From: Candidatus Kaiserbacteria bacterium CG10_big_fil_rev_8_21_14_0_10_49_17
Lineage (GTDB): Bacteria > Patescibacteriota > Minisyncoccia > Phycocordibacterales > JABMNX01
Direction of reading: 5' to 3'
Assembly (NCBI GenBank): GCA_002778575.1
Contig: PFBJ01000003.1
Coordinates: 11,057 to 75,056, forward strand
Length of the DNA stretch: 64,000 nucleotides
Shown here: piece by piece, positions 21,224 to 41,576 of the stretch
Numbering within the stretch: the stretch's first letter is position 1
Layout: every line of letters begins with the position of its first letter
Notes under the pieces: model-generated
Databases searched by the model: none
Seen by the model: the letters and a program-made list of their open reading frames with translations, nothing else
Told to the model about the DNA's origin: nothing
Position numbers and translations under genes: made by a program

Positions 21224-21931
21224 ATGAATGACTTGAGAATGGTGTACACTGCCCGTATGGCACATGCCGACATAAAACTGGCTCCCGAGTGGAAGGTGCT
21301 TTTAGCCGCAGAATTTACTGCACCGTATTTTACAGAGTTGGCTGAGTTGGTTCGCGCAGAATACCTTACACATACGGTCTTTCCTCCTCCGAAATACATT
21401 TTCCGCGCACTTGATTTAGTGGCGCCGTCTGACGTAGCGGTAGTCATCCTTGGGCAAGACCCGTACCACACCCCTGGTGTCGCTGACGGACTCGCATTTT
21501 CAACAGGAAGCAAGAATCGCATTCCGCCATCACTTGCAAATATCTTTAAAGAAATAGAAAGCGAGTTTGCTGTGCCGTGCATACAGAATCCGGATCTAAC
21601 TCGGTGGGCGAACCAAGGAGTACTGCTTCTTAATGCGTCGCTCTCGGTACGCTCTGGCGAGGCAAATTCACACGCTCTGTACGGGTGGCACACATTTACC
21701 GATGCAATTATCAAATCCCTATCGGAAAATTACTCACATATTGTTTTTATGCTCTGGGGCACGTTTGCAGGGAAAAAAGAGGTGCTCATTGACTCACATA
21801 CGCACTTGGTATTGAAATCGGCTCACCCATCACCGCTCTCCGCGCATCGAGGTTTTTTTGGAAATGCGCACTTTACGCGGGCGAATGCCTATCTAATTAA
21901 AAACGGAAAGAAACCTATTGACTGGAGGTAA
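21224..21931 (+). CDS. ung: uracil-DNA glycosylase, family 1
   Basis: GQDPYH water-activating loop, HPSPLSA leucine-loop motif; true start may be internal (MAHADIK, about 21257). Confidence 0.9.
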   Translation: MNDLRMVYTARMAHADIKLAPEWKVLLAAEFTAPYFTELAELVRAEYLTHTVFPPPKYIFRALDLVAPSDVAVVILGQDPYHTPGVADGLAFSTGSKNRIPPSLANIFKEIESEFAVPCIQNPDLTRWANQGVLLLNASLSVRSGEANSHALYGWHTFTDAIIKSLSENYSHIVFMLWGTFAGKKEVLIDSHTHLVLKSAHPSPLSAHRGFFGNAHFTRANAYLIKNGKKPIDWR

Positions 21932-22175
21932 GTGCTCCTTCATTTCTTAGAAGCGTTGCTTTCTCGCCCCGCAGGCCATTGTAGCCGCCAAGTGTTCCAT
22001 TCGCGCGGATGACCCTATGACACGGCACACGTTTATCAGTATTGTTTTTCATTACCACCCCCACTGCTCGCGCCGCGCGCGGGCTTCCCGCACGTGCTGC
22101 CACCTCGCCATATGAGAGCGTCTTCCCTTCTGGAATCCCGCGCACTATTGCCACCACTCGCTCAGTAAAATCCAT
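21915..22175 (-). CDS. ogt: methylated-DNA--protein-cysteine methyltransferase DNA-binding domain protein (MGMT C-terminal domain only)
   Basis: PCHRV active-site motif, about 86 aa stand-alone domain. Confidence 0.8.
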   Translation of the reverse strand: MDFTERVVAIVRGIPEGKTLSYGEVAARAGSPRAARAVGVVMKNNTDKRVPCHRVIRANGTLGGYNGLRGEKATLLRNEGALTSSQ

Positions 22176-22176
22176 A

Positions 22177-23043
22177 TTAGAACAATGATCCAGTATCTGT
22201 GGCGCTGGACTGTGGCGGCACATCTAATTTTGGTTGCGCCGCGGAGTATCGCTCCTGGAGTTTTTTGCCAGCGTACTTTCGGTAGGTGCAGTAGTCACAC
22301 TCCGGGTGCGCGTCCGGTATATTCTCGCTATCAAGACACTCTTTAATGCGAAGCAGTGTTGGTTCTATCCATGATCCGTCTCCCGTATACGGAATGAGTG
22401 TTACCTCAAAAATGAGTTTTCCGTCGAATGCTTTCTCATCCTTGCTTGCATTCGCATAGACAAAGTAACCCGTATCAGAGACGCGAAAACCATTCTGCCT
22501 CAAAAGCCACTGGTATACTTCCATCTGGCGTTTGTAGCCGTCCTGCCAATCTTTATTTAACTCCTCAATTTTCTCATCCTTGCTCGTTGACTTGTAGTCA
22601 ACGACCAGCAATTCTTCTTCGGGGGTCACCCACACGTCATCCACCGCACCTGAAATAGTAAATCCGGTCTTTTTATGCGTGCACTCTATCCCCTTAAAAT
22701 TTTCCCGCCAAATGTCCAGCTTGCTATGAGCAAATGGAATTGCATGTATGCCGTACTGCTCCATGAGCGGGTGCGCCGTTTTATCCGCCCGGTGAATATC
22801 GAACTCTTTTTTAAGCAGTGCATCAACCGCGCTATTGAGTGCGAATGGGTACCCAGGCGGACGGGCGGTTCCGAGCTTATTGTCGAGGTAGAAGCACCGC
22901 GGACACTCAACAAAAAGATCAATCTTTGAACGGGAGAGGCGCCACCGAGGGCCGCCATAATTCCAATCCGCTTTCCTGTCGGGCTTGTAGTATGAACTCA
23001 TGCATCGCAGTATACCACTGCTCACACTCTCACAAAATCCCAA
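22177..23043 (-). CDS. PD-(D/E)xK nuclease with 4-Cys Fe-S cluster (Cas4/RecB-like exonuclease family), no CRISPR context
   Basis: N-terminal CPRC, core VVDYKS (D-x-K), C-terminal CDYCTYRKYAG three-Cys motif. Confidence 0.7.
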   Translation of the reverse strand: MGFCESVSSGILRCMSSYYKPDRKADWNYGGPRWRLSRSKIDLFVECPRCFYLDNKLGTARPPGYPFALNSAVDALLKKEFDIHRADKTAHPLMEQYGIHAIPFAHSKLDIWRENFKGIECTHKKTGFTISGAVDDVWVTPEEELLVVDYKSTSKDEKIEELNKDWQDGYKRQMEVYQWLLRQNGFRVSDTGYFVYANASKDEKAFDGKLIFEVTLIPYTGDGSWIEPTLLRIKECLDSENIPDAHPECDYCTYRKYAGKKLQERYSAAQPKLDVPPQSSATDTGSLF

Positions 23044-23046
23044 CCG

Positions 23047-23547
23047 CTACTCGCCCTCTTCCTCTTCAATCCGCACAGGCGTTTTCTTTGCAGAGTCTGT
23101 CCACGCTTTCAGTCTGTCTTCAATAAACCAAAGCGCTGTGAAGGCCAAGAGCGCGAGGAGTGCTGAGAAAATGGCGATCGCATAGAGTCCAAAACCAATA
23201 GCAATACCGATTCCTGACGCAACCCATAACCCCGCCGCGGTCGTGAGCCCCCTGAGCTCATCTCCTCGGAAGATAATGATTCCCGCTCCGATAAATCCGA
23301 TACCGGTAATAATCCCAGCAACAACACGCATCGGGTCGAAATTTACCAGACCCAAGTACGAATGCGTTACTTGAATTCCAATAACCGTAAAGAGGCATGA
23401 GCCGAGAGAGACCAGTGCAAATGTTCGCGAGCCGGCCCGTTTCCCTGCGACAACAGAGCGTTCTGTTCCCAGCAAGAGGCCGAGCAGGAGCGCGAGGCTA
23501 AGCTGGCCAAAGACGATGAGTAACGAAGCCGGTACGAATGGTTCCAT
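23047..23547 (-). CDS. mgtC: MgtC/SapB-family membrane protein
   Basis: MgtC N-terminal signature LLGLLLGTER, 4-5 TM. Confidence 0.8.
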   Translation of the reverse strand: MEPFVPASLLIVFGQLSLALLLGLLLGTERSVVAGKRAGSRTFALVSLGSCLFTVIGIQVTHSYLGLVNFDPMRVVAGIITGIGFIGAGIIIFRGDELRGLTTAAGLWVASGIGIAIGFGLYAIAIFSALLALLAFTALWFIEDRLKAWTDSAKKTPVRIEEEEGE

Positions 23548-23565: not shown

Positions 23566-23594
23566 TTGACTCCCGTCAACCTGATTTGTATGTT
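23566..23594 (+). promoter_or_regulatory. sigma-70-type promoter: -35 TTGACT, 17-bp spacer, -10 TATGTT with upstream TG
   Basis: near-consensus hexamers 30-55 nt upstream of ATG 23623, followed by AAGGAG RBS. Confidence 0.6.
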
Positions 23595-23622
23595 TAAAAC
23601 GGCATAGAAGAAGGAGTGCGTG

Positions 23623-23982
23623 ATGAAAATCCGCTTAACTGAAGAAAATCAAGGCGACTTTTGCGGTTGGAAAATCGTACTGATGGAATCCGGAGGCGCC
23701 ACGCGTGGTGAATTTGGCGGACTGAAGGAGGGAATGCTTGGGGCGAAAATCCTTTCTTACAAACCCGGAACCAAGGAGCTGTACAACGAGGTGACGGGAA
23801 AGTGGGAGCCGGCAGAGTGTATCCTCAATGACTTCGAGGGTCCCGCAACAAGCTCTATGCTTGAGTTTCATCAGGGCGATGGTGGAATTCTCTGTATGGG
23901 CATTCCGTATATCGGTCCCTGCTACCTCGTGCCTCCCGACGTAGAACTTTCTCTCCCCTCGCGAAAGATGTTCTGCGATTAG
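23623..23982 (+). CDS. hypothetical small protein (120 aa), orphan plus-strand gene
   Basis: strong promoter, AAGGAG RBS 6 nt upstream, double terminator downstream; no recognisable domain. Confidence 0.6.
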   Translation: MKIRLTEENQGDFCGWKIVLMESGGATRGEFGGLKEGMLGAKILSYKPGTKELYNEVTGKWEPAECILNDFEGPATSSMLEFHQGDGGILCMGIPYIGPCYLVPPDVELSLPSRKMFCD

Positions 23983-23987
23983 AGCTA

Positions 23988-24012
23988 AAGGCGCCCTCTG
24001 GGCGTCTTTTTG
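23988..24012 (+). terminator. rho-independent terminator
   Basis: AGGCGCCC-tct-GGGCGTCT hairpin followed by TTTTT. Confidence 0.75.
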
Positions 24013-24015
24013 TAT

Positions 24016-24055
24016 AAAAAAATCGACTCAGTCAGGTGACTGAGTCGATTTTTTG
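24016..24055. terminator. bidirectional rho-independent terminator
   Basis: A7 - ATCGACTCAGTC-aggt-GACTGAGTCGAT (12-bp perfect stem) - T6. Confidence 0.8.
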
Positions 24056-24074: not shown

Positions 24075-24638
24075 CTAATTTGTTCGAAATGCACTCATAA
24101 GAGGAGCTCCGCCGGCCCCAAGAGCTGGGAAATCTGTATCGAGTGAGAATTCTCTATCGCCATTGTCTTGGTAAATGACGGCAAAATAGAGAGCATTTGC
24201 TGTTGTGCCGCGAAGCAACTCAACAACGACGTTTTCATGCACTCCCGCCTCAAGACGTGCCGCTCCGAGAGCATTACCGATTTGATTATCACTGCCTTCA
24301 TGAATGACAACCCATCCGGTTTCTTGTAATTCAACCTTTCGGACAGTAACGCTCATACCCGCAGGTTGATTTGAAACTGCGATCGCGGAATTACTTGTCA
24401 GCACTGGCGCTGACCCGCTTCCTGAATCTGTATCTCCTGATACATCGGGATTCACACCTGAGCCAATGAGCCCTGAATCACCTGATTTTATGTCACTATC
24501 ATCATCAATTACCGCGGTATCATCTGTGCGGCTCTCTGCGCTTTCGCTCTTTGGGCCAAGGTAAAGCCACGTAAGCGCTGATCCGATGAGAAGACCAGTG
24601 ACGAATAGCGCACCAAATTTGACATACTGATTATTCAT
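24075..24638 (-). CDS. hypothetical secreted/membrane-anchored protein (N-terminal TM, acidic Ser/Asp-rich linker)
   Basis: signal-anchor FGALFVTGLLIGSALTWLYLG; no known domain. Confidence 0.55.
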   Translation of the reverse strand: MNNQYVKFGALFVTGLLIGSALTWLYLGPKSESAESRTDDTAVIDDDSDIKSGDSGLIGSGVNPDVSGDTDSGSGSAPVLTSNSAIAVSNQPAGMSVTVRKVELQETGWVVIHEGSDNQIGNALGAARLEAGVHENVVVELLRGTTANALYFAVIYQDNGDREFSLDTDFPALGAGGAPLMSAFRTN

Positions 24639-24681: not shown

Positions 24682-25533
24682 TTACATTGCTACACCGCTT
24701 GTGCACAAGTCCTGAGCTTCTCGCATTGCTTCCGCGGCTTTCTCGGGTGTTATGCCGTGCTCCGTAAGAACACTTGCGCCCGCCTTAATTGAGCGACACA
24801 GAACAAGTTTGTCTTCAAGTAGTCGCTGTTTTTCCGACTCTGAGAGCGTTGTGAGGCACGTAATAGGGTGCAGACCTGTTTCTGAAACAAGATCCTGTAA
24901 ATTGCCGCTTTCCGGGTAATTCCAGCCGATAAGCGTCAGCCCGACACACTTTCCGTATTCAATTGCATTACCGGTAAATTTTGTATTCGTAATGAGCATC
25001 CCGCGCTCAATGTGCGCTTCTCCCTCTACTTTCGGAGCTTCGGCTAAATCAATAAAGCGCGCCCGCACGTACAGCGCTACCTTTAGGTCGGTTTTCATCC
25101 CGGGACTGTTATGAAATTTTACCTCGGCACCAAATGCATCATCAGCTGACGTCGCGATAAGATCCACCTCGTGTTCAGCGCACTTTCCGTTTGTGATAAC
25201 TCCCGTCATGACGTCGTAGCCTTTCGCGCGGAAAATTTCACTTACGAAATCCTCAAACGGAAAACCGGACGGGCCGAGCGCTAGGATTGCCCGCTTCAGT
25301 GAATAGCGTGCCGCAACGGGACGCACCTCTTTCTCCCGTAAATAATTAAATGCTCGTGAGTAAATTTCTTGAGTCGACATGCCGTCTTTCATTTCAGAAA
25401 CCACCTGCGTTGTTATTTCCGCAATAGTTTTCTCTCCCGCGCCTGCCCGGGTAAGAGAGCGCTTGAGCTTTTCCGGATCAAACGGCTCCCGCTCTCCATC
25501 AGCTTTAACAATTGTGACGCTTTTTTTCTCCAT
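24682..25533 (-). CDS. ATP-cone domain fused to Mrr-type PD-(D/E)xK restriction-endonuclease-like domain
   Basis: N-terminal ATP-cone (VTIVKADGEREPFDPEKLKRSL...), then FEDFVSEIFRAKGYDV...EVDLIA...AEVKF (D...ExK) matching Mrr_cat. Confidence 0.65.
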   Translation of the reverse strand: MEKKSVTIVKADGEREPFDPEKLKRSLTRAGAGEKTIAEITTQVVSEMKDGMSTQEIYSRAFNYLREKEVRPVAARYSLKRAILALGPSGFPFEDFVSEIFRAKGYDVMTGVITNGKCAEHEVDLIATSADDAFGAEVKFHNSPGMKTDLKVALYVRARFIDLAEAPKVEGEAHIERGMLITNTKFTGNAIEYGKCVGLTLIGWNYPESGNLQDLVSETGLHPITCLTTLSESEKQRLLEDKLVLCRSIKAGASVLTEHGITPEKAAEAMREAQDLCTSGVAM

Positions 25534-25546
25534 ATGTGTATCTTAT

Positions 25547-26623
25547 CTAATGTCTCGTTGTATCACTAGTCGCAATTATGCCTCCACCGAGACACTCACC
25601 GTCTTTGTAGAGTACTAACGACTGTCCCGGGGAGGGTTTCTCTGCGGATTCAGCAAGCGAAACAGACGAGTCCTCTATAACTGCCCTCCGGAGCGCTCCT
25701 CGATGCCGGGTACGCGCGTCTGCCTCTCCGTGCGGTACCTCGCGAATCCAATGCGTATTTTCAAGTGTAATGCTTTCTGCTGCTGTCTCTTCAGGAGACC
25801 CACTTCGGACCGTAATGGTATTTTTTTCAATATCTTTCGCGATAACGAAATGAGCGCGCTCATCTGTCTTTTGCGACGTGACCGTAAAGCCGTGCCGCTG
25901 CCCGTACGTATAGAGTATTGCCCCTTCGTGCTCCCCAATAACAGCTCCGGCTTCATTTAAAACAGCTCCGCTATTCGTGGGAATATACTGTCGTATGAAG
26001 TCTCGTATTTCCACATCTCCAATAAAACAGAGACCTTGGCTTTCAGAACGCGTGGCACTGGGAAGTCTGTGTTCTACTGCGTACGCACGCACTTCATCCT
26101 TTGTCATTGCGTAGAGTGGAAAGAGCGAACGAGAGAGCTGCTGCTGCGTAAGTGTCCACAGAAAGTACGTCTGGTCCTTTGTTTTATCCTTTGGTTGTAA
26201 AAGCGCATACGCGCCTTCTTTTTCCTCAACTGCCCCATAGTGGCCAGTTGCTATGGCATCCGCGCCTTCTGCAAGCGCATAGTCAAGAAAAGCTCCGAAT
26301 TTAACCGACCGGTTGCACATCACATCAGGATTTGGAGTGCGTCCCGCGGTGTATTCAGCTATCAGGTAATCTATAACTTCTTTTTTGTACACATCGGAGA
26401 GATCGAGTGTTTGAAATGGGATTTCAAGGTGTGCGGCACTGCGAAGAGCAGCCGCTCTATCTTCTTCCCATGTGCAGTGTATAAACTCCGGTTGCCAAAT
26501 TTTGATAAAAACGCCCACAACCGCGTATCCCTGATTTTTGAGAATGTGCGCGGCAACAGAAGAATCGACCCCGCCCGAGAGTCCGACAAAAATTGTTTTC
26601 TGTGTATCACTCATCACTGCCAC
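25547..26623 (-). CDS. mnmA: tRNA-specific 2-thiouridylase MnmA
   Basis: PP-loop VGLSGGVDSSV, catalytic Cys residues. Confidence 0.92.
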   Translation of the reverse strand: MAVMSDTQKTIFVGLSGGVDSSVAAHILKNQGYAVVGVFIKIWQPEFIHCTWEEDRAAALRSAAHLEIPFQTLDLSDVYKKEVIDYLIAEYTAGRTPNPDVMCNRSVKFGAFLDYALAEGADAIATGHYGAVEEKEGAYALLQPKDKTKDQTYFLWTLTQQQLSRSLFPLYAMTKDEVRAYAVEHRLPSATRSESQGLCFIGDVEIRDFIRQYIPTNSGAVLNEAGAVIGEHEGAILYTYGQRHGFTVTSQKTDERAHFVIAKDIEKNTITVRSGSPEETAAESITLENTHWIREVPHGEADARTRHRGALRRAVIEDSSVSLAESAEKPSPGQSLVLYKDGECLGGGIIATSDTTRH

Positions 26624-26646: not shown

Positions 26647-27660
26647 CTAATTAACATAGAGTGCCTTCTTTCTTTTATGCTCCTCAAACGTTCGAGAAAA
26701 GTACGTCACACCGTTTCTATCAGCCAAGTAGTAGAGGTAGTTACTCTCAATCGGCTCAGCTGCGGCAATAATCGATTCGATAGACGGACTGCCGATCGGC
26801 GTCGGTGGGAGCCCTTTGTGCTGGTATGTGTTATACGGCGACGAGGCGTCAGCGAGCTCGGCTTTGGTAATATCGTATGTACCCTTCCCGTTTATGTAAC
26901 GGAATGTCGCGTCAACCTGAAGCGCCATATCAATATCCAACCGATTCCATAACACGCTGGCTATACGTCGCTTTACCTCAAAATCATGCGCCTCTCGTTC
27001 AAGTATTGACGCCATTATGACAATATCCTCCACGGAGCGCCCTGAAGCTCCAAGCCGCAATGCAATATCTTCAATGCGCGCGAAGAACGTACCGCGCAAA
27101 ACCGAGACGACTTCATCTGCCGTAGTGCTTGGCAGAAAGTGGTACGTATCAGGGTAGAGGTACCCCTCAAATTGCGTGGCAATCTGCGTAAAGCGTTCCG
27201 CGTCGAAGCGAGGCAGTACACTCTGTAACTGTTGCGCCATCTCTGCCACTGTTGACCCCTCTTCAATCCTCACTGTAATGGTATCAAGCCCGTACTCTCC
27301 GCGATTCATTCTCCACGCAAGCGCAAGTACGTTTTCCCTTGTGTCGAGATAGTAATCTCCTGCTATGACTTTTCCTCCGAAAAGAAGTGCGGCTGCTTTA
27401 AACACCGTAGCTGACTGGATAATGCCGTTTTCTTTCAGTAGTGATGCAGTACTGCCAATTGTCCCGCCGCTTTTAACGGTAATGACGTGTTGCGTAGGAA
27501 ATGTATGCGGCGGCGCAATGAGCGTTGAATATGTCAGTGAGATAAGAAAAAGAACCGCAACTGCAAAAAGTGCGGCAGTTTCTCTATTGCGATTGTGTCG
27601 CATCCATGTATGAAGTCGCTCATGCCTTGAGCGCATTTTTTCTATTAGCACGCGCATCAT
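26647..27660 (-). CDS. mltG: endolytic murein transglycosylase MltG (YceG-like)
   Basis: N-terminal TM, YceG domain, conserved YYLADRNGVTYFSRTFEEH region. Confidence 0.82.
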   Translation of the reverse strand: MMRVLIEKMRSRHERLHTWMRHNRNRETAALFAVAVLFLISLTYSTLIAPPHTFPTQHVITVKSGGTIGSTASLLKENGIIQSATVFKAAALLFGGKVIAGDYYLDTRENVLALAWRMNRGEYGLDTITVRIEEGSTVAEMAQQLQSVLPRFDAERFTQIATQFEGYLYPDTYHFLPSTTADEVVSVLRGTFFARIEDIALRLGASGRSVEDIVIMASILEREAHDFEVKRRIASVLWNRLDIDMALQVDATFRYINGKGTYDITKAELADASSPYNTYQHKGLPPTPIGSPSIESIIAAAEPIESNYLYYLADRNGVTYFSRTFEEHKRKKALYVN

Positions 27661-28988
27661 GTCGGGAGATTTGTGGGCGCGCCGCCGGTCGTGCTTGGGA
27701 TACGGCGAAGTGCGGGGGCCGATACAGCCTCGCCAGGGAAGTGATAGAGAGTCGCAAGCTCTTCCGTATTAAGCACGAAGTGCGGAGTCTCGTACGGCGG
27801 GTAAAACCACGAACGCCGTTTATACGCGTCAATGATTGCCGCTTTCATTTTGTTTTTCTTTCTATCCTTATAGTCCTGCCACGGATAGCTGAATGCCGTA
27901 AACCACCCCGTCGGAGCAAACCCATTGAGTAAATCATCATTTAATTGCTTTAGTGAGATGGTAAGCGCAGGAATATTCGAAGCATTGAAATTCTCCTTCT
28001 TTGCAATATAAATACCACGAATACCCGCATCAAAACCGGGCTTGCTGATACTCCGTTCGATTGCCTCGAGTTGCAGTTTCTGGCCGAATGTAGGATTTGG
28101 AAAACCTGGAAATTCTTGCCCTGGATATTGCGGAGAAGATTCTTCACGAATTTTCTGAATCATCGCTTTCGCCTCGTCCTTCCATGACACATACCCGCCA
28201 AACGGCCCCCACCCAGCATCTTTTTTAAAGCGTTTGTCTTCCGATAGCTTGTCTTTATTTTGACGAATCAGTATCTGAAACCACAGCTGCTCCCCGGGCC
28301 CCATTCGGCCGAGAAATTCGAAGAAACCGGCCATTGGGTCAATTTTATATTCTTCTTTCGGATCTTTATCGAGACCGTAGTCAACGTACGTACGAATCGG
28401 GAGGGCGTCTTCTTTGGTGAGTTTAAAATCGCACCCCCACACATTCATCGTTTCAACATTAAATTCTACGAATTTTGTATAGTCCTCAACTTCAGTTATC
28501 TGCACGTTCGGGTACTGCCCGTATATTTGCGCCTCAACAATGTCTTGTAAGAAACGCCGAGTCCAAATAAAGAAATGAATTTCTCCTTCAATGGAAGCTA
28601 TTTCAAGCGAGAACCACGGACGCACTCTTCCCTCCAGCCATCTGTTGATAAATGTTGCCTCTCCCATGCCAAGATGAAAATTGGTGAGGACCGTTTCCAT
28701 TGCTTTTGGTGATTTTGAAATTTCCTGGGGAAGCCGGATCTCCAGCAATACGTATTCCTGAGAGTTGATAAATTTCGTTCGAATGTATGTTTTCCACATT
28801 CCCCAAAACACAAACAGCAGCACTACCGGAAGCCATAACGGAGAGAGCGCGAGTATGCCGCGAAAGACGGAACCGAGGAGCGACGGGGAGAGGTACGTAA
28901 TAACCGAGAGTATGATGACAAGCACCGGTACCAAGACGGTAGTCGGTGAAAACCCGAATTTATCTGCAAGGTTAACGAGCCATTGCAT
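27657..28988 (-). CDS. hypothetical membrane protein (3 N-terminal TM plus about 330-aa soluble domain)
   Basis: 4-nt overlap with mltG start suggests co-transcription/coupling; no known domain. Confidence 0.55.
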   Translation of the reverse strand: MQWLVNLADKFGFSPTTVLVPVLVIILSVITYLSPSLLGSVFRGILALSPLWLPVVLLFVFWGMWKTYIRTKFINSQEYVLLEIRLPQEISKSPKAMETVLTNFHLGMGEATFINRWLEGRVRPWFSLEIASIEGEIHFFIWTRRFLQDIVEAQIYGQYPNVQITEVEDYTKFVEFNVETMNVWGCDFKLTKEDALPIRTYVDYGLDKDPKEEYKIDPMAGFFEFLGRMGPGEQLWFQILIRQNKDKLSEDKRFKKDAGWGPFGGYVSWKDEAKAMIQKIREESSPQYPGQEFPGFPNPTFGQKLQLEAIERSISKPGFDAGIRGIYIAKKENFNASNIPALTISLKQLNDDLLNGFAPTGWFTAFSYPWQDYKDRKKNKMKAAIIDAYKRRSWFYPPYETPHFVLNTEELATLYHFPGEAVSAPALRRIPSTTGGAPTNLPT

Positions 28989-29057
28989 ATTGCATCAATA
29001 ATACAGCATTGCCTGCTCTTTGGCTTCTCTTTACTGACCCCTCAGTGGGAATAGCTA

Positions 29058-30092
29058 TTAGGCGAGAGTGTAACGGCCGTCTTTGCCGCGCGCAAAAACA
29101 CTCGAATCCTGAAGATTCACAAGAATTGTATTGTCCTTCACGTATCGCTCCTTTCGAACGCGGTCAATAATTTCATCGCGAGTCAGTGGCCCTTCATTCT
29201 TCAAAATCTCACGGATAACTTCCTTTACAACGCCAGTCGAATAGCCCCACTCAGAAAGTGCGTAAAGTCCGCGGCCGACAAGTACAAAACGGTCGTCTTT
29301 AATAAGTTCATTGTGGCACGTAGCCGTATGTGCTCGACGATTGAAGAGTTCATTGATAGCCTTTGCAACCTCTGTAAAGTGCATCGGTGAGCCGTGTCGC
29401 TTAATTGCCAAGTATGCGTAGTCCCGCATGCCTTTTGCACGGACGTTCGGACTTGCCGCAAGCCCCCACTCCCCGAGCGGGTTTTGCCCAATACCCTTTG
29501 ACAGCGAGAGCCATCGGCGAAGTATTTCTTCATCGCGGTAACGTTGGTTAAGATCGCGAAGTTCTGAAAGAAATGTATCGAACAGTTCGGACTCCGGAAT
29601 TAAATCGTCATCACCAAGATTTTTGTATACCGAGCGGAGTGCGTTTTGGACTTGCTCTGCCAATTTTTCATCCGTGTACCAACGGTGTGCAAATTCTGAA
29701 TCTTCCTTTTTTCGAGTAAATTGATTCCCAAGCACTAGAAGAAAGTGTATGTGATTCCGTGTGCTCTCATCCTTTGCGACGGATGCGAGGAGGCTTTCCT
29801 CTGAAATGACGCCTCCGAGGGAGTCAACATACTCCGCCAGTGCCGCAAATGCTGCCGCTTCATTTTCAAATGCCTCGGATTTCTGGATTGTCGCAATAGC
29901 GTAATTTTCAATCTGTCGTACTCGCTCACGCGTAATGCCGTACCGCTTGCCAATCGCTTCAAGCGTGAGGGGATCGGTCTTATCTCCAAGACCGTAGCGC
30001 GCAATGAGTACTTCTCGGGCACGGTCCGGTAGAGCGGCGAGGAGTCGCTTCGTTACCGCTTTTGGTTTAAGTGATGAAATTACGGTTGCCAT
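29058..30092 (-). CDS. DNA-binding protein with N-terminal sigma-70 region-4-like HTH and two C-terminal HARE-HTH domains
   Basis: LTLEAIGKRYGITRERVRQIE (sigma r4.2-like); RFVLVGRGLYALSEWGY and a second PLTRDEIIDRV...SVFARGKDGRYTL winged-helix matching HARE-HTH RFVRVGRGxFALxEW. Confidence 0.6.
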   Translation of the reverse strand: MATVISSLKPKAVTKRLLAALPDRAREVLIARYGLGDKTDPLTLEAIGKRYGITRERVRQIENYAIATIQKSEAFENEAAAFAALAEYVDSLGGVISEESLLASVAKDESTRNHIHFLLVLGNQFTRKKEDSEFAHRWYTDEKLAEQVQNALRSVYKNLGDDDLIPESELFDTFLSELRDLNQRYRDEEILRRWLSLSKGIGQNPLGEWGLAASPNVRAKGMRDYAYLAIKRHGSPMHFTEVAKAINELFNRRAHTATCHNELIKDDRFVLVGRGLYALSEWGYSTGVVKEVIREILKNEGPLTRDEIIDRVRKERYVKDNTILVNLQDSSVFARGKDGRYTLA

Positions 30093-36648: not shown

Positions 36649-36684
36649 AGTGTAGTCACCGGAGCAAGCTCCAATGACTACACT
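36649..36684. promoter_or_regulatory. 10-bp perfect inverted repeat AGTGTAGTCA-n16-TGACTACACT upstream of efflux operon
   Basis: seen directly; core AGTGTAGT/ACTACACT shared with hairpin at 48170-48207. Confidence 0.45.
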
Positions 36685-36820
36685 CCAAACGTATCATGCA
36701 CAGTATCGTTTTGCAAGAGTTTGCAAAGGTGCTGTGGATAAATGCGATCCTAATCCGAATAATTCCCTCTACAAAGCCAATTTTGACAAATTGTGTATTT
36801 TAATGTACTTTTATCCAGCT

Positions 36821-38476
36821 ATGTTGAAGAAAATCCTTACCTACCCGCGGGCAGGGCTCCGTTTTATACGGAACAATAAAAAAGTATCACTACCCGCTAT
36901 CGGACTTATTGTAATTCTCATAATTGCCGGACTTGTATCTGGCGGGACTCACGCAGACGTACCGAATGGAAAGGTTATTAAACGATCTGTCGAAGTTCGA
37001 TCAGTAGCTGAACTCTCAAATGACAAGACGCCTCTCTCCCTCACCGGTCGCGTACGCTCCCAAACTGAGGCAAATCTCTACACCGAGCGCTCGGGTGAAG
37101 TCACCGGCGTTTACCGTACTGTTGGTGATTTTGTATACGCCGGAACAGTTATAGCTGAGATTTCCAATACGTCTGAACGGGCAGCTGTTTTTCAAGCCGA
37201 AGGTGCGGTCGAGCAAGCACAAGCCGCGCTCCAAAAGGTTCAAAGCGGCGCTCGGTCTGAAGAAATTTCTATTCTTGAAATTAATCTGCGCAATGCGAAT
37301 GAGTCATACCAAACTGCCTTGACTAGCGCTCTTAATACTCTCCTTTCCGCGTACGCCACAATTGACGACGCTATTTTGCGCCGTTCTGACCAGGCATTCT
37401 CAAATCCGCGCCTGAGCAATCCAACATTTAATCCTCCTCTCCCCGATTCACAACTCGCAATTACGCTTGCCAATGACCGACTTGCCATTCAATCCATTCT
37501 TGCGCGCCACGCAGTAGCCAGCGCGACTATTTCTGGTGATGAGAGCATAGAAGGTGAATTGGCTAAAACAGCTGAAGATGCCCGTTTTGTTAAGGGATTT
37601 CTTGACGATTTGGTGTATGCTCTTAACCGAGCTATCACATCCTCATCCGTAAGCAGCACTGACATCGACGCATTTCTTGCAGATGCAACGACTGCGCGTA
37701 GTAACGTACAGTCAGTACTAAGTGCGCTTTCAACGGCGCAGTCGACAATCGAGACAAAACGCGCCCTGCTTGAGGTTGCGGAAAAAAACCGCGACCAGGC
37801 AATTAGCGGTGCCCGCAGTGAAGACATTGCAAGTGCTGAGGCTACGTTAAAGCAGGCGCTTGGGACGCTGCGTGTTGCTCAGGCAAACCTTGCAAAAACA
37901 CTGATACGCACGCCAATTAGCGGAACGCTTAATACGCTTTCGATTCAGCAGGGCGACTTCGTGTCCGCGCAGGTTCCTGCCGCAACTGTTTCAAATAACT
38001 CTGCTTTAGAGATACAGACATATATCACCCACGCTGACCGAGAAGACATTGCCGTAGGGTCGGACGTAACCATTGAGGGACGCTACAAGGGGGTTGTAAC
38101 CAGCATCGCGCCGGGCCTTGACCCGATTACCCGTAAAATTGAAGTGCGTATTGGCCTCTCTGATACTGAAACCGAACTAGTGCACGGAGATTCGGTTCGT
38201 ATGTCAGTAAGCCGCGCCGCGAAAGTTGCCGATGCAAGAGAGAGCACTACAGCTGATCAATTTAGTATCCCAATTTCAGCGCTGAAAGTTGAAACTGATC
38301 GAGTTCTCGTATTTACCGTGGATGAAGACCGAACACTCGTTGAGCATACCGTTAAGGAGGGAGCTCTTCTGGGGGAGAAAGTGATTATTCTTGAAGGTCT
38401 TTCCCCTGAAATGGAAATTGTACTGGATGCCCGCGGTCTTGTTGCCGGAGATAGCGTCGTCCTAGTAGAGCGGTAA
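36821..38476 (+). CDS. efflux transporter periplasmic adaptor subunit (HlyD/membrane-fusion protein family) with long coiled coil
   Basis: N-terminal TM, extended coiled coil, beta-barrel/MP domains; start set at MLKKILTYP preceded by AT-rich region. Confidence 0.8.
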   Translation: MLKKILTYPRAGLRFIRNNKKVSLPAIGLIVILIIAGLVSGGTHADVPNGKVIKRSVEVRSVAELSNDKTPLSLTGRVRSQTEANLYTERSGEVTGVYRTVGDFVYAGTVIAEISNTSERAAVFQAEGAVEQAQAALQKVQSGARSEEISILEINLRNANESYQTALTSALNTLLSAYATIDDAILRRSDQAFSNPRLSNPTFNPPLPDSQLAITLANDRLAIQSILARHAVASATISGDESIEGELAKTAEDARFVKGFLDDLVYALNRAITSSSVSSTDIDAFLADATTARSNVQSVLSALSTAQSTIETKRALLEVAEKNRDQAISGARSEDIASAEATLKQALGTLRVAQANLAKTLIRTPISGTLNTLSIQQGDFVSAQVPAATVSNNSALEIQTYITHADREDIAVGSDVTIEGRYKGVVTSIAPGLDPITRKIEVRIGLSDTETELVHGDSVRMSVSRAAKVADARESTTADQFSIPISALKVETDRVLVFTVDEDRTLVEHTVKEGALLGEKVIILEGLSPEMEIVLDARGLVAGDSVVLVER

Positions 38477-38477
38477 T

Positions 38478-41400
38478 ATGTATTATTTTTGGAGTTTTTT
38501 CCTGAAGAAACGCAGCTTCTCATATCTTTTTATAGCGGCGCTCGTTGTCTTCGGCAGTGCGGCTGTTTTTACGATTCCAAAGGAAAATGCTCCGGAGGTA
38601 AAGGTGCCCATTGCAATTGTCTCAACAATACTCCCTGGAGCAACCGCAGAGACTGTAGAGAAACTGGTTACAAACAAAATTGAGGACGCAATTGCAAACC
38701 TCGAGGATATTAAGTCAATCACATCAACTTCCCGAGAGGGCATTTCTGGCATCGTAGTTGAATTTGACGCAAAGGCTGACATCGAGACATCGGTGCAGGA
38801 CCTTAAGAATGAAGTTGATACCGTGGCACCGCAACTGCCAAATGAAGCTGAAGACTCAACAGTTACGAAGCTCTCCTTTGTGGACCAGCCGGTCCTCACC
38901 GTTGCTATTTCTGGCGACTTGCCTGCACCTGAATTTTTTGCATTAGCCGATTCGCTTGAACGTGAGTTAAAAGCGCTCGCCGGCGTCTCTGACGTACACA
39001 TAGCAGGTAAGCGTGAGCGTGAAGTGCAGGTAATCGTAAGCAAAGAAGCGCTTGCCACCTACGGCCTCACGCTTTCGCAGGTGACCGCTGCAATTGCAGG
39101 TGCTAATACGACACTCCCTATCGGCAGTATTACCGTTAATGATATTGAATACAACGTAGAATTTGCGAGCGACGTTACGGATCCTTCAGAAATCGCTGAC
39201 CTTGCAATCCTTTCCACTCCAAATGGTAGTCCTATTTATGTCCGCGATGTCGCATTTGTTTCAGACAGTTTCGAGAAGACCCGCACATTCTCACGTATCT
39301 CAATTGACGGCTCTCCGAGTGAAAACGCTCTTTCATTTAATATTTTCGCGAAGTCAGGTGGAGATATTACAGACGTTTCCGCACACGTTCGCGCGCACCT
39401 TACCGCACTACAGGAGCCTGGGAGCCTTCTTGAGGGAGTCACTGTCCTTGTCGTTTTTGATGCAGGAGAATTTCTAAAGCGAGACCTCCTCACGCTCGTT
39501 TTCTCCGGCCTTCAAACAGTAGCACTTGTTATGATTATTCTCTTCCTCACAATCGGGTGGCGTGAAGCGCTCGTCGCCGGTGCCGCAATTCCTCTTTCAT
39601 TTCTCATTGCATTTATTGCTCTGGAGGCAACCGGAAACACAATAAACTTTGTTTCTCTTTTCTCGCTCATTTTAGCAGTGGGTATCTTGGTTGACTCCGC
39701 AATTGTAATTGTCGAGGGCATACATACCAGAATGAAGCTTCAAATGGACAAAAAGGAAGCGGCGTATGAGACGATCAAGGAATTTTACCTTCCGCTGACA
39801 TCTGGGACTCTCACGACCGTTGCCGTATTTGCCCCGCTCTTTTTGATTTCAGGCATTACAGGCGAATTTATCGCAAGCATTCCGTTTACGATTATTTTCG
39901 TGCTTATGGCTTCGCTCCTTGTCGCGCTCGGTTTTATTCCGCTTATTGCCTCTATCGTCCTGCGGCGGCGCAACATGAGTCGTCTTGAGGAGAGTCAGGA
40001 ACAGTTCACTTCACGACTCCAAAAATGGTACCGGAACGTGCTCGATTCATTTCTTGAGAATAGAAAGAAGCAACGAACGCTCTTTATTTCACTGTCTGTT
40101 GCATTTGTTGTCGCCCTTTCCTTCCCTATTGTTGGAGTCGTACCGGTTATCTTCTTTCCACAGGAAGATATAGATTTCATTGTCGCTGATGTAGAAATGC
40201 CGCAGGGCTCGATTCTCGAGCGAACTGATTTTGAAGCGCGGAAGGTTGAGGAGATTCTGTACGAGGAGCCTGCAATCGATTCATTTGTAACCACAGTCGG
40301 ACAAGCGAGTTCCTTTGGACTTGAGGGGGGCACGACAGAGAAACGTTTTGCCAATGTATTTATTAACCTGCGGACTGACAGAAGCGACACAAGTACCGAA
40401 ATCGTTAATAGGCTTAGGGAATCAACTACTGACATCCACACAGCAAAGGTGAGCGTCTCTCAGCCGTCAAACGGCCCGCCGGGAGGCGCGCCAGTGTCGA
40501 TTTCATTCCTTGGGGATAATCTCGACGATCTTGATCGCGTCGCAAAGCGGGCCGCACAGCTTCTTGAAAGCATCCCCGGAACTGCTGATGTCGCAACCGG
40601 AGCCCGTAACAGCACGACAGAATTTGTACTGACTATCGACAAAGCAAAGGCGACCGAGCTTGGTCTTGATCCACGAACAGTTGCAGAGACACTTCGGACA
40701 GCGGTGTATGGAACAACTGCCACAACGATAAAAAATCAGGAGGGTGACATTGACGTAGTCGTTCGTCTTGATCTTAATGCTGATTTTATTAATCCGCACG
40801 ATACAAACCGCGCGACTATTGATGATATTCGCCAACTCGCAATTGAAACTGCGCGTGGCCCGATACTGCTCGGATCAGTTCTCACCGGCAGTATTAAGAA
40901 AGGCAACCCGACAATTGCTCACGACGACCGCAAGCGCGTTACCACCGTGACCGCACAGCTTGCTGAAGGTGGAAATGCGCTTGCGATTGTTTCAGAGTTC
41001 CAGGACCGCATCGCTGAGCTTTCGCTTGGCGAAGGTATAGTTGCTGATTTTGGCGGAGAGAATGAAGACGTTCAACAGTCATTCCAGGATATGTTCTACG
41101 CCCTCATCATCGGCATGCTGTCAATGTTTGCTATTCTTGTCTTGCAATTTAACTCATTCCGGCATGCGGGATACGTGCTCTCTATTGTTCCGCTTGCACT
41201 TATCGGCATTTTTGCCGGACTCGCTATTACCGGAAAGGCCCTTTCGTTCCCGTCAATTATGGGATTTATAGCGCTTGCAGGAATTGTTGTTAATAACTCA
41301 ATTATCCTCATTGATGTTATTAACACGCTGCGCGCTAAAAATGACGGCGTCGTAACAAAGGAGATTATCATTACCGGTGCAACGGCACGCTTGCGCCCAA

Positions 41401-41576
41401 TTCTCCTTACTGCGCTTACGACTGTCATCGGAATTACACCGCTCATCTTTGCGGCGGAACTCTGGGCGCCACTTGCCTTCTCTATAATGTTTGGCCTTAC
41501 ATTCTCAGTTATTATTACACTCCTCCTTATTCCGGTTATTTACTACCGATGGCCAGGAAACGTCTCTCGTGAATAA
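38478..41576 (+). CDS. RND-superfamily efflux permease (AcrB/HAE family), 12 TM
   Basis: 1032 aa, two large periplasmic loops, conserved RND TM4/TM10 regions. Confidence 0.9.
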   Translation: MYYFWSFFLKKRSFSYLFIAALVVFGSAAVFTIPKENAPEVKVPIAIVSTILPGATAETVEKLVTNKIEDAIANLEDIKSITSTSREGISGIVVEFDAKADIETSVQDLKNEVDTVAPQLPNEAEDSTVTKLSFVDQPVLTVAISGDLPAPEFFALADSLERELKALAGVSDVHIAGKREREVQVIVSKEALATYGLTLSQVTAAIAGANTTLPIGSITVNDIEYNVEFASDVTDPSEIADLAILSTPNGSPIYVRDVAFVSDSFEKTRTFSRISIDGSPSENALSFNIFAKSGGDITDVSAHVRAHLTALQEPGSLLEGVTVLVVFDAGEFLKRDLLTLVFSGLQTVALVMIILFLTIGWREALVAGAAIPLSFLIAFIALEATGNTINFVSLFSLILAVGILVDSAIVIVEGIHTRMKLQMDKKEAAYETIKEFYLPLTSGTLTTVAVFAPLFLISGITGEFIASIPFTIIFVLMASLLVALGFIPLIASIVLRRRNMSRLEESQEQFTSRLQKWYRNVLDSFLENRKKQRTLFISLSVAFVVALSFPIVGVVPVIFFPQEDIDFIVADVEMPQGSILERTDFEARKVEEILYEEPAIDSFVTTVGQASSFGLEGGTTEKRFANVFINLRTDRSDTSTEIVNRLRESTTDIHTAKVSVSQPSNGPPGGAPVSISFLGDNLDDLDRVAKRAAQLLESIPGTADVATGARNSTTEFVLTIDKAKATELGLDPRTVAETLRTAVYGTTATTIKNQEGDIDVVVRLDLNADFINPHDTNRATIDDIRQLAIETARGPILLGSVLTGSIKKGNPTIAHDDRKRVTTVTAQLAEGGNALAIVSEFQDRIAELSLGEGIVADFGGENEDVQQSFQDMFYALIIGMLSMFAILVLQFNSFRHAGYVLSIVPLALIGIFAGLAITGKALSFPSIMGFIALAGIVVNNSIILIDVINTLRAKNDGVVTKEIIITGATARLRPILLTALTTVIGITPLIFAAELWAPLAFSIMFGLTFSVIITLLLIPVIYYRWPGNVSRE

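Follow-up and report, generated by a model that had tools for sequence, protein, structure and literature searches.

What does an ATP-cone, a domain familiar from the control of deoxyribonucleotide synthesis, do at the N-terminus of a nuclease? The question is raised by a gene in a 64,000-nucleotide stretch (hereafter 'the window') of contig PFBJ01000003.1 from Candidatus Kaiserbacteria bacterium CG10_big_fil_rev_8_21_14_0_10_49_17, a Candidate Phyla Radiation (CPR) bacterium, which encodes a 283-aa protein called here the 'ATP-cone nuclease'. An initial annotation, made from the letters of the DNA, had described this protein as an ATP-cone fused to an Mrr-type PD-(D/E)xK nuclease and had likened its logic to that of recently described anti-phage effectors. 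As detailed below, the fusion is the standard and fixed architecture of a very large family and is not peculiar to this genome, and an anti-phage role is not supported. The explanation favoured here, with confidence that is about evenly balanced, is that of a single-chain housekeeping nuclease gated by adenine nucleotides, which would tie nucleic-acid turnover to the energy and nucleotide status of the cell.

ATP-cones are the adenine-nucleotide sensors of ribonucleotide reductases (RNRs, classes I and III) and of NrdR, where nucleotide binding switches the oligomeric state; to our knowledge, the ATP-cones known from experiments are regulators of RNRs and the repressor NrdR only. Because cones act in this way in these proteins, a comparable switch can be proposed for the ATP-cone nuclease, in which the binding of ATP, as against dATP, ADP or AMP, would change either how the protein oligomerises or where the helix with the catalytic residue Glu94 sits, and would thereby turn cleavage on or off. 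The cone is joined to this first catalytic helix by a very short and extremely conserved junction, and the C-terminal (HhH)2 domain would hold nucleic acid without sequence specificity. A position upstream of the catabolism and salvage of nucleoside monophosphates (NMPs) is further suggested by the genomic contexts of the family. According to this scheme, falling adenylate charge would lead the nuclease to open up RNA or DNA, and the fragments would pass through exonucleases into the NMP (AMP-phosphorylase/ribose-bisphosphate) salvage and catabolic route of archaea and CPR bacteria.

Domain architecture and active site

The open reading frame (ORF) on the minus strand begins with ATG and contains the motifs quoted in the initial annotation. 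The protein is built of three domains (an ATP-cone, an AF1548/Mrr-type PD-(D/E)xK nuclease and a C-terminal (HhH)2-like domain), and its AlphaFold (AF2) model is confident, with a pLDDT of 92. The claimed fusion is borne out by a Pfam search that puts both of its domains above their gathering scores: the ATP-cone (PF03477) at residues 7–82 with 48.9 bits for a cut-off of 25.8 (E = 9.6e-13), and Mrr_cat (PF04471) at residues 90–201 with 28.3 bits for a cut-off of 21 (E = 2.1e-6). The third domain, AF1548-like (PF22357, residues 223–275), is sub-threshold in the window copy (16.7 bits for a cut-off of 23.9); it is recorded in many homologues, and the same region is spanned by the alignment with the structure 1Y88 discussed below. 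This (HhH)2-type domain is probably a non-specific nucleic-acid-binding module.

The nuclease catalytic site is intact, as the initial annotation had held. Residues E94, D124, E137 and K139 are invariant in two alignments, one of 40 diverse sequences (A2) and one of members from archaea, CPR and Bacteroidota (A3), and nuclease function is predicted for the family from this E-D-ExK site. R159, D162, N183, W204, P207 and P223 are likewise invariant across the group-spanning alignments. The most conserved stretch of the family is the cone–nuclease junction. Its column entropy in A2, at 1.31 bits, is lower than that of any other region, the catalytic strands themselves included, and it contains the most conserved 12-mer, LGPSGFPFEDFV (residues 86–97). 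Close homologues keep four cysteines (C118, C196, C246 and C277) with little or no variation, and for two of the four, conservation in the diverse set is still 90% or more; C118 lies three residues N-terminal of the H-E-x-D catalytic strand. These cysteines could form a redox or metal site.

The protein gave no match to Mrr_N at E ≤ 1 in Pfam, and an assignment as an Mrr-type restriction enzyme proper was rejected for absence of this winged-helix reader of modified DNA. Unlike Mrr and the type IV or modification-dependent restriction enzymes (MspJI, AspBHI), the ATP-cone nuclease has neither Mrr_N nor an SRA-like reader, its N-terminus being occupied by the ATP-cone, and it is found outside restriction–modification or defence contexts. 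A primary role as Holliday-junction resolvase was also rejected, since archaea that carry the gene have Hjc as well; neither a match to the Hjc profile (PF01870) nor the position of sole resolvase of its genome was found for the protein.

The ATP-cone

The four-helix and beta-hairpin fold of the cone is present in the protein. When aligned with the cone of E. coli NrdA, whose nucleotide-contact residues are K9, R10, E15, K21, T55 and K91, the window protein has K10, E16, K22, T54 and K80 at equivalent positions and an alanine at the equivalent of R10. Across alignments spanning all groups of the family, K10 and G13 are invariant and K22 is nearly so. The hairpin at residues 10–13 defines two cone subtypes in A2 and A3, namely K-R-D-G, found in Archaeoglobi and in one member labelled as Nanoarchaeota, and K-[A/S/T/N]-x-G, found in members from CPR, other DPANN lineages, Bathyarchaeia and Bacteroidota. 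The latter subtype may have a different ligand or a different stoichiometry. The CPR-type cone differs from the cones of RNR and NrdR in reading K-A/S/T-x-G rather than K-R-D-G, and the output domain is a nuclease in place of a reductase or a zinc-ribbon DNA binder.

The structurally nearest cones are those of NrdR, and the best NCBIfam match of the protein is also NrdR, far below the cut-off. Both observations would fit a transcription regulator of the NrdR kind, in which the nuclease fold would only bind DNA and the protein would repress genes of nucleotide metabolism according to ATP and dATP. It is, however, a most improbable explanation. The protein has no zinc ribbon and begins directly with the cone hairpin, the four catalytic residues are invariant in Archaea, CPR and Bacteroidota, which is unexpected for a purely DNA-binding relic, and no RNR gene was adjacent in any locus examined. 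The narrower assignment as an NrdR paralogue was rejected because the zinc ribbon is absent and because TIGR00244 matches the cone part only, with 21.2 bits for a cut-off of 124.65.

AF1548 and its crystal structure

Residues 96–275 match AF1548 of Archaeoglobus fulgidus, a protein from structural genomics (PDB 1Y88), with E = 1.2e-29, and the likeness to the AF1548 family holds in both sequence and fold over the nuclease and the C-terminal domain. The crystallised chain lacks a cone, its 199 residues aligning to the family profile only from about position 90 onwards. What has been published on AF1548 is computational: a prediction of 2007 made it a restriction endonuclease whose triad is D/E/K (PMC1821046), and a census of PD-(D/E)XK proteins grouped it with Mrr_cat/COG1787, the cone being unmentioned (PMC3424549). 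The closest database protein to AF1548 (99% identical) has 265 aa and all three domains, and its gene lies on an Archaeoglobus-type contig. Codon 92 of this gene is GTG, and right after it come the residues with which the crystallised chain enters its native sequence (chain residue 24 onwards), residue 23 of the chain being a Met that the 265-aa gene does not encode. From this 99%-identical gene, and not from the DSM 4304 reference itself, we infer that AF1548 was annotated from an internal GTG. The only solved structure of the family hence appears to be truncated at its N-terminus, without the cone and without the first helix bearing LGPxGFxFE and Glu94.

Family size, distribution and conservation

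A word-indexed search retrieved 4,894 relatives. HMMER, run exhaustively against 1.84 billion cluster representatives, yielded at least 1,234 clusters (50% identity) at E ≤ 1e-3, with 439 at E ≤ 1e-30. Nearly all of the best 150 HMMER matches are 264–311 aa long and align end-to-end, the exceptions being one of 221 aa and three of 324–403 aa. Carriers number at least 593 species genomes in GTDB, scanned with a search built on alignment A1, and at least 556 metagenome stretches. Among CPR bacteria they include Kaiserbacteria, Pacebacteria/Paceibacteria, Campbell-, Yonath-, Zambryski- and Wolfebacteria, and among archaea Archaeoglobi, Nanoarchaeota, Aenigmarchaeota, Korarchaeota, Bathyarchaeia and Altiarchaeales. 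The family is also present in several orders of Bacteroidota, with one further copy on a chlamydial plasmid. The window copy is an ordinary orthologue of this family.

In CPR bacteria the ATP-cone nuclease behaves as a core gene with vertical inheritance, as conserved as MnmA: mean identity across the CPR loci is 50.6% for the nuclease, 47.5% for MnmA and 41.5% for YceG. Identities of the nuclease correlate with those of MnmA and YceG (Spearman 0.37–0.39) and not significantly with those of the other neighbours, and these modest values weakly support vertical co-inheritance. The fusion itself is already catalogued, since databases name its members 'ATP cone domain-containing protein' or 'restriction endonuclease'. 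A literature search turned up no study of the family and no experimentally characterised member, and nowhere in the searched literature is an ATP-cone connected with a nuclease or with defence against phages, in agreement with the initial annotation, which had called the fusion not a characterised system.

Genomic contexts outside CPR

Neighbours outside CPR vary by lineage, with two recurring themes, nucleotide catabolism or salvage and membrane transport. In Bacteroidota, a beta-CASP/RMMBL metallo-beta-lactamase nuclease directly follows the ATP-cone nuclease, and the third position is taken either by an AAA_28 protein or by an AMP-phosphorylase-like protein ('thymidine phosphorylase family') accompanied by a protein resembling phosphoribosyl pyrophosphate (PRPP) synthetase. 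The resulting four-gene module (ATP-cone nuclease, beta-CASP/RMMBL, AMP-phosphorylase-like and PRPP-synthetase-like) was found on Cyclobacterium and Sphingobacterium-type contigs and on two plasmids, one from Pontibacter and one from Criblamydia; the nucleases of these four modules are just 49–56% identical, and their partners have co-diverged. The Criblamydia module is flanked on one side by a cation P-type ATPase, a phosphoketolase and a glycogen phosphorylase, and on the other by an acetate kinase and a glucoamylase. In Bathyarchaeia-type loci, a gene for a ribose-1,5-bisphosphate (R15P)-isomerase-like protein and one for an AMP-phosphorylase-like protein precede the ATP-cone nuclease, with overlapping ends; in a third locus the phosphorylase gene stands in divergent orientation. 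For archaea the AMP-phosphorylase/R15P pathway is established, and for CPR bacteria it has been inferred (PMC5113843).

Partners similar to those of the Bacteroidota/Chlamydiota module, matched by annotation names only, occur in the Bradyrhizobium diazoefficiens operon bll3117-bll3116-bll3115 (phosphorylase-family protein, PRPP-synthetase-like protein and metallo-beta-lactamase hydrolase). Together with a phosphoketolase/acetate-kinase operon, it is controlled by FixK2 and induced at low oxygen (PMC6515984, PMC9104804); the same two enzymes flank the Criblamydia module. The ATP-cone nuclease is not listed for the bll3117-bll3115 operon, and genes flanking the operon are unmentioned in the searched papers.

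The Bacteroidota loci also speak of mobility. Copies that are 84–99% identical occur across orders, in Cyclobacterium, Saprospiraceae, Sediminibacterium, Flavobacterium and Sphingobacterium, and Bacteroidota copies are found inside copper/silver-resistance islands with HMBD P-type ATPase, CusA/CusB, DUF3347, DUF305 and multicopper oxidase genes (loci L073, L075, L082 and L084–L087). This points to recent horizontal spread in Bacteroidota, unlike the vertical pattern seen in CPR. Finally, clustering of the neighbours in 80 archaeal-type metagenome loci revealed no universal partner and lineage-specific synteny only (Glu-synthase-like, DJ-1/PfpI and a 218-aa membrane protein).

The second theme, membrane transport, could be read as a sign that the nuclease serves ion or Mg2+ homeostasis, either degrading ribosomal or other RNA and so freeing Mg2+ and phosphate, or responding to MgATP in place of free ATP. 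Transport proteins adjoin, and often overlap, the ATP-cone nuclease in five separate lineages: an adjoining and overlapping CorA in Ferroglobus, an MscS in the Archaeoglobus-type locus (35-nt overlap with the 265-aa gene downstream), a P-type cation ATPase that overlaps in Bacteroidota and is nearby in Criblamydia, permease–Usp fusions in two Archaeoglobi loci, and MgtC in 48 of 83 related CPR loci and in the window. The transporter families are, however, unrelated and their substrates different, and genes for membrane transporters are common enough that the adjacency could be due to chance, so that a dedicated link with ion homeostasis is considered very unlikely.

The locus in the window and synteny in CPR

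The window consists of housekeeping DNA of a Paceibacteria-like CPR bacterium, with genes for LeuRS, YchF, AlaRS, RpoA, a sigma70/HARE-HTH protein, YceG/MltG and MnmA, and with one tRNA as its single Rfam match. The features discussed, together with those of related loci, are displayed in Table 1.

Table 1. Position of the ATP-cone nuclease, its domains and its neighbours in the window, and of selected features in related loci
Feature	Position	Strand	Basis or remark
ATP-cone nuclease gene, complete, 283 aa	24682..25533	minus	ORF list, Pfam, 4,894 homologues, AF2 model
ATP-cone domain, aa 7–82	25288..25515	minus	K10 and G13 invariant, K22 nearly so
Cone–nuclease junction, aa 73–97, RYsLKrAilaLGPSGFPFEdFV	25243..25317	minus	ends in catalytic-helix Glu94; entropy
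Mrr_cat/AF1548-type PD-(D/E)xK core, aa 90–201	24931..25266	minus	Pfam
Active-site residues (predicted)	E94 25252-25254; D124 25162-25164; E137 25123-25125; K139 25117-25119	minus	
C-terminal AF1548-like (HhH)2-type domain, aa 223–275	24709..24867	minus	sub-threshold Pfam and 1Y88 alignment
mnmA (tRNA 2-thiouridylase)	25547..26623	minus	13 nt upstream of the ATP-cone nuclease; Pfam; 73/83 loci
DUF7282 protein gene	24075..24638	minus	43 nt downstream, last before terminator; Pfam E = 1.5e-18; downstream in 15/83 loci
Bidirectional intrinsic terminator cluster	23987..24054	both	sequence and folding; perfect 17-bp hairpin 24017-24054 flanked by A and T runs, GC hairpin 23987-24009
120-aa ORF	23620-23982	plus	ends at the terminator cluster
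Promoter-like site	23566-23594		ahead of the 120-aa ORF
MgtC	23047-23547		
Solitary Cas4-like PDDEXK_1 nuclease	22177-23043		PADLOC Cas4 models
102-aa MGMT-type protein	21915-22223		PCHR motif kept; follows the Cas4-like nuclease
UDG	21224-21931		opposite strand to the Cas4-like nuclease/MGMT pair
443-aa protein	within 27657-30092		no Pfam match
HlyD-type adaptor (600 aa) and RND transporter (1,032 aa)	36674-41576	plus	transporter 38478-41576
Four-gene module	L086 10001-14657; L075 8019-12634; L175 1972-6597; L176 7001-11608		
265-aa gene close to AF1548	L172 6001-6798		Archaeoglobus-type contig
MscS	L172 5193-6035		upstream of the 265-aa gene
CorA	L088 5958-7001		Ferroglobus
P-type cation ATPase	L084-L087 7390-10011		Bacteroidota
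Permease–Usp fusions	L089 4722-6998; L173 6904-9144		Archaeoglobi

Both gaps that flank the ATP-cone nuclease gene are unstructured and contain no hairpin, and a terminator cluster lies past the DUF7282 gene; a transcription unit (yceG)-mnmA-ATP-cone nuclease-DUF7282, ending at this cluster, is therefore likely, and the nuclease gene is probably co-transcribed with mnmA. The terminators, which an automatic scan had missed, were found by reading and folding the sequence (folding z = -7.6 on the minus strand and -7.0 on the plus strand). The initial annotation had described a patch of hypothetical genes bounded by strong terminators; the hairpins are strong indeed, but they sit between two convergent small ORFs and do not bound the patch. 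One of these, the 120-aa ORF preceded by a promoter-like site, has no match in Pfam or PADLOC and none by tblastn in the 83 related loci, and looks like a lineage-specific insertion between the genes for MgtC and the DUF7282 protein.

Gene order around the ATP-cone nuclease is well kept in CPR. Three long contigs share the order sigma70/HARE-HTH, DUF8128, YceG, MnmA, nuclease, (DUF7282/MgtC), PDDEXK_1, MGMT-type and UDG, despite nuclease identities of just 52–56%. Of the 83 related loci, 73 have mnmA immediately upstream in the same orientation, with YceG (64), DUF8128 (59) and the sigma factor (54) also on this side; downstream, MgtC (48) is joined by the Cas4-like nuclease (46) and the MGMT-type protein (35). 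The 443-aa protein of the window has syntenic counterparts in loci L001–L003 that match DUF8128, two of the three weakly, and the DUF8128 counterpart and the sigma70_r4/HARE-HTH protein form a conserved pair upstream of yceG-mnmA (54–59 of the 83 loci). Elsewhere in the window, the HlyD-type adaptor and the full-length AcrB/AcrD/AcrF transporter of the RND type (E = 1e-193) are encoded by what is apparently a small-genome CPR bacterium. Homologues of AMP phosphorylase, beta-CASP, PRPP synthetase, CorA, MscS and P-type ATPase were searched for in the window, and none was found.

The conserved downstream genes bring to mind a nuclease of DNA repair or recombination, structure-specific or directed against damage, that would work with the products of these repair genes while its cone tied cutting to the supply of deoxyribonucleotides. 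Such a role seems unlikely. Between the repair genes and the nuclease gene lies MgtC or DUF7282, outside CPR these genes are not neighbours of the nuclease, Geoglobus has a separate Hjc 2 kb from its ATP-cone nuclease, and the contexts outside CPR indicate nucleotide catabolism or transport rather than repair.

An anti-phage role

Since the initial annotation had implied an anti-phage role, the protein was compared with known defence systems. Its sole match in PADLOC-DB 2.0 was PDC-S02 at noise level (E = 0.008, 13.4 bits). In the same comparison, a set of ten proteins was tested (eight neighbours within about 5 kb, plus the RND transporter), and the one defence-relevant match among them was the solitary Cas4-like PD-(D/E)xK nuclease; MnmA and the sigma factor matched PADLOC QueC and MzaA incidentally, through shared domains, and no further cas model, Cas10 or CD-NTase was matched. 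No relative was detected in a scan of 2.9 million viral contigs (IMG/VR) or, by tblastn, in 50,697 phage genomes; in PHROGs the family is absent and only RNR cones match. Two of 72,556 plasmids are carriers, and the mobile copies of Bacteroidota and Chlamydiota lie in metal-resistance or catabolic islands, not in defence islands.

This distribution is that of a vertically inherited core gene and not of a defence gene, and the window copy is not in a defence island. With no significant PADLOC match, no viral copies and a housekeeping synteny that is fixed in CPR, the implied role is left without support. The initial annotation had also considered that homologues might be uniformly embedded in nucleotide-metabolism operons as NrdR paralogues; a conserved non-defence context was indeed found, but not in this form. 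An abortive-infection effector, whose cone would sense a collapse or distortion of ATP and deoxyribonucleotide pools caused by a phage and would unleash non-specific DNA cleavage, is hence quite improbable: besides the fixed CPR synteny, conservation at the level of core genes, the lack of a defence system among the ten proteins, absence from viral and phage sequences and near absence from plasmids, and the metal-resistance or catabolic nature of the mobile islands all count against it.

In its presumed mode of action, the ATP-cone nuclease can nevertheless be compared with the effectors of type III CRISPR and CBASS systems (Can1/Can2, Card1, Cdn1, Cap4, NucC), as it is predicted to be a PD-(D/E)xK nuclease that a ligand gates through a sensor of an unusual kind. 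What the two have in common is the nuclease fold alone. The sensor is an ATP-cone and not CARF or SAVED, there is no cyclase/CD-NTase partner, the context is one of housekeeping, and the presumed ligand is a primary metabolite as opposed to the dedicated second messengers of CARF/SAVED effectors. Assignment as a CARF/SAVED-gated effector was rejected in view of the ATP-cone sensor and of the missing Cas10 and CD-NTase matches.

Weighing the proposed function

Several points weigh against a gated housekeeping nuclease of nucleic-acid turnover. With K-[AST]-x-G in place of KRDG, the ligand could differ from ATP/dATP. The adjacency to mnmA may be without functional meaning, because synteny is generally high in CPR, and the Bacteroidota/Chlamydiota module, being horizontally mobile, may represent only one or two evolutionary events. 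In addition, nucleotide metabolism has no part in many of the archaeal contexts. Last, no salvage partner lies within 8 kb of the gene in the window or in 80 CPR loci, so that for CPR the physiological link is carried over from homologues of about 45% identity.

A bolder version of the favoured explanation, put forward tentatively and judged rather unlikely, makes the ATP-cone nuclease the gated entry enzyme of an unrecognised pathway that turns nucleic acid into energy and salvage products. A drop in adenylate charge would lead the cone to free the endonuclease, a beta-CASP exonuclease would yield NMPs, and an AMP-phosphorylase-type enzyme would convert these into ribose-1,5-bisphosphate. The ribose would then be directed to PRPP or to the pentose-phosphate pathway, phosphoketolase and acetate kinase, or in archaea and CPR bacteria to R15P isomerase and RuBisCO.

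Biological significance

A nuclease controlled by an ATP-cone would bring the degradation of nucleic acids under this allosteric switch and would directly link energy or nucleotide status to the turnover of genome or RNA. If the entry-enzyme version is true, the protein would give the first example of ATP-cone control over an enzyme outside deoxyribonucleotide synthesis, and it would fulfil a core survival function in symbionts of the CPR and DPANN groups for which scavenged nucleic acids are the means of living. In practical terms, surveys of CPR genomes should leave the ATP-cone nuclease out of their counts of defence genes. Occurrence in cultivable Bacteroidota (Cyclobacterium, Pontibacter, Sphingobacterium, Flavobacterium) makes the function of the family experimentally tractable now. 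The family is very large, belongs to the core of Paceibacteria-type CPR bacteria and occurs commonly in archaea, DPANN among them; as CPR and DPANN organisms are thought to rely on nucleotides that they scavenge, the function of this nuclease would bear on their survival.

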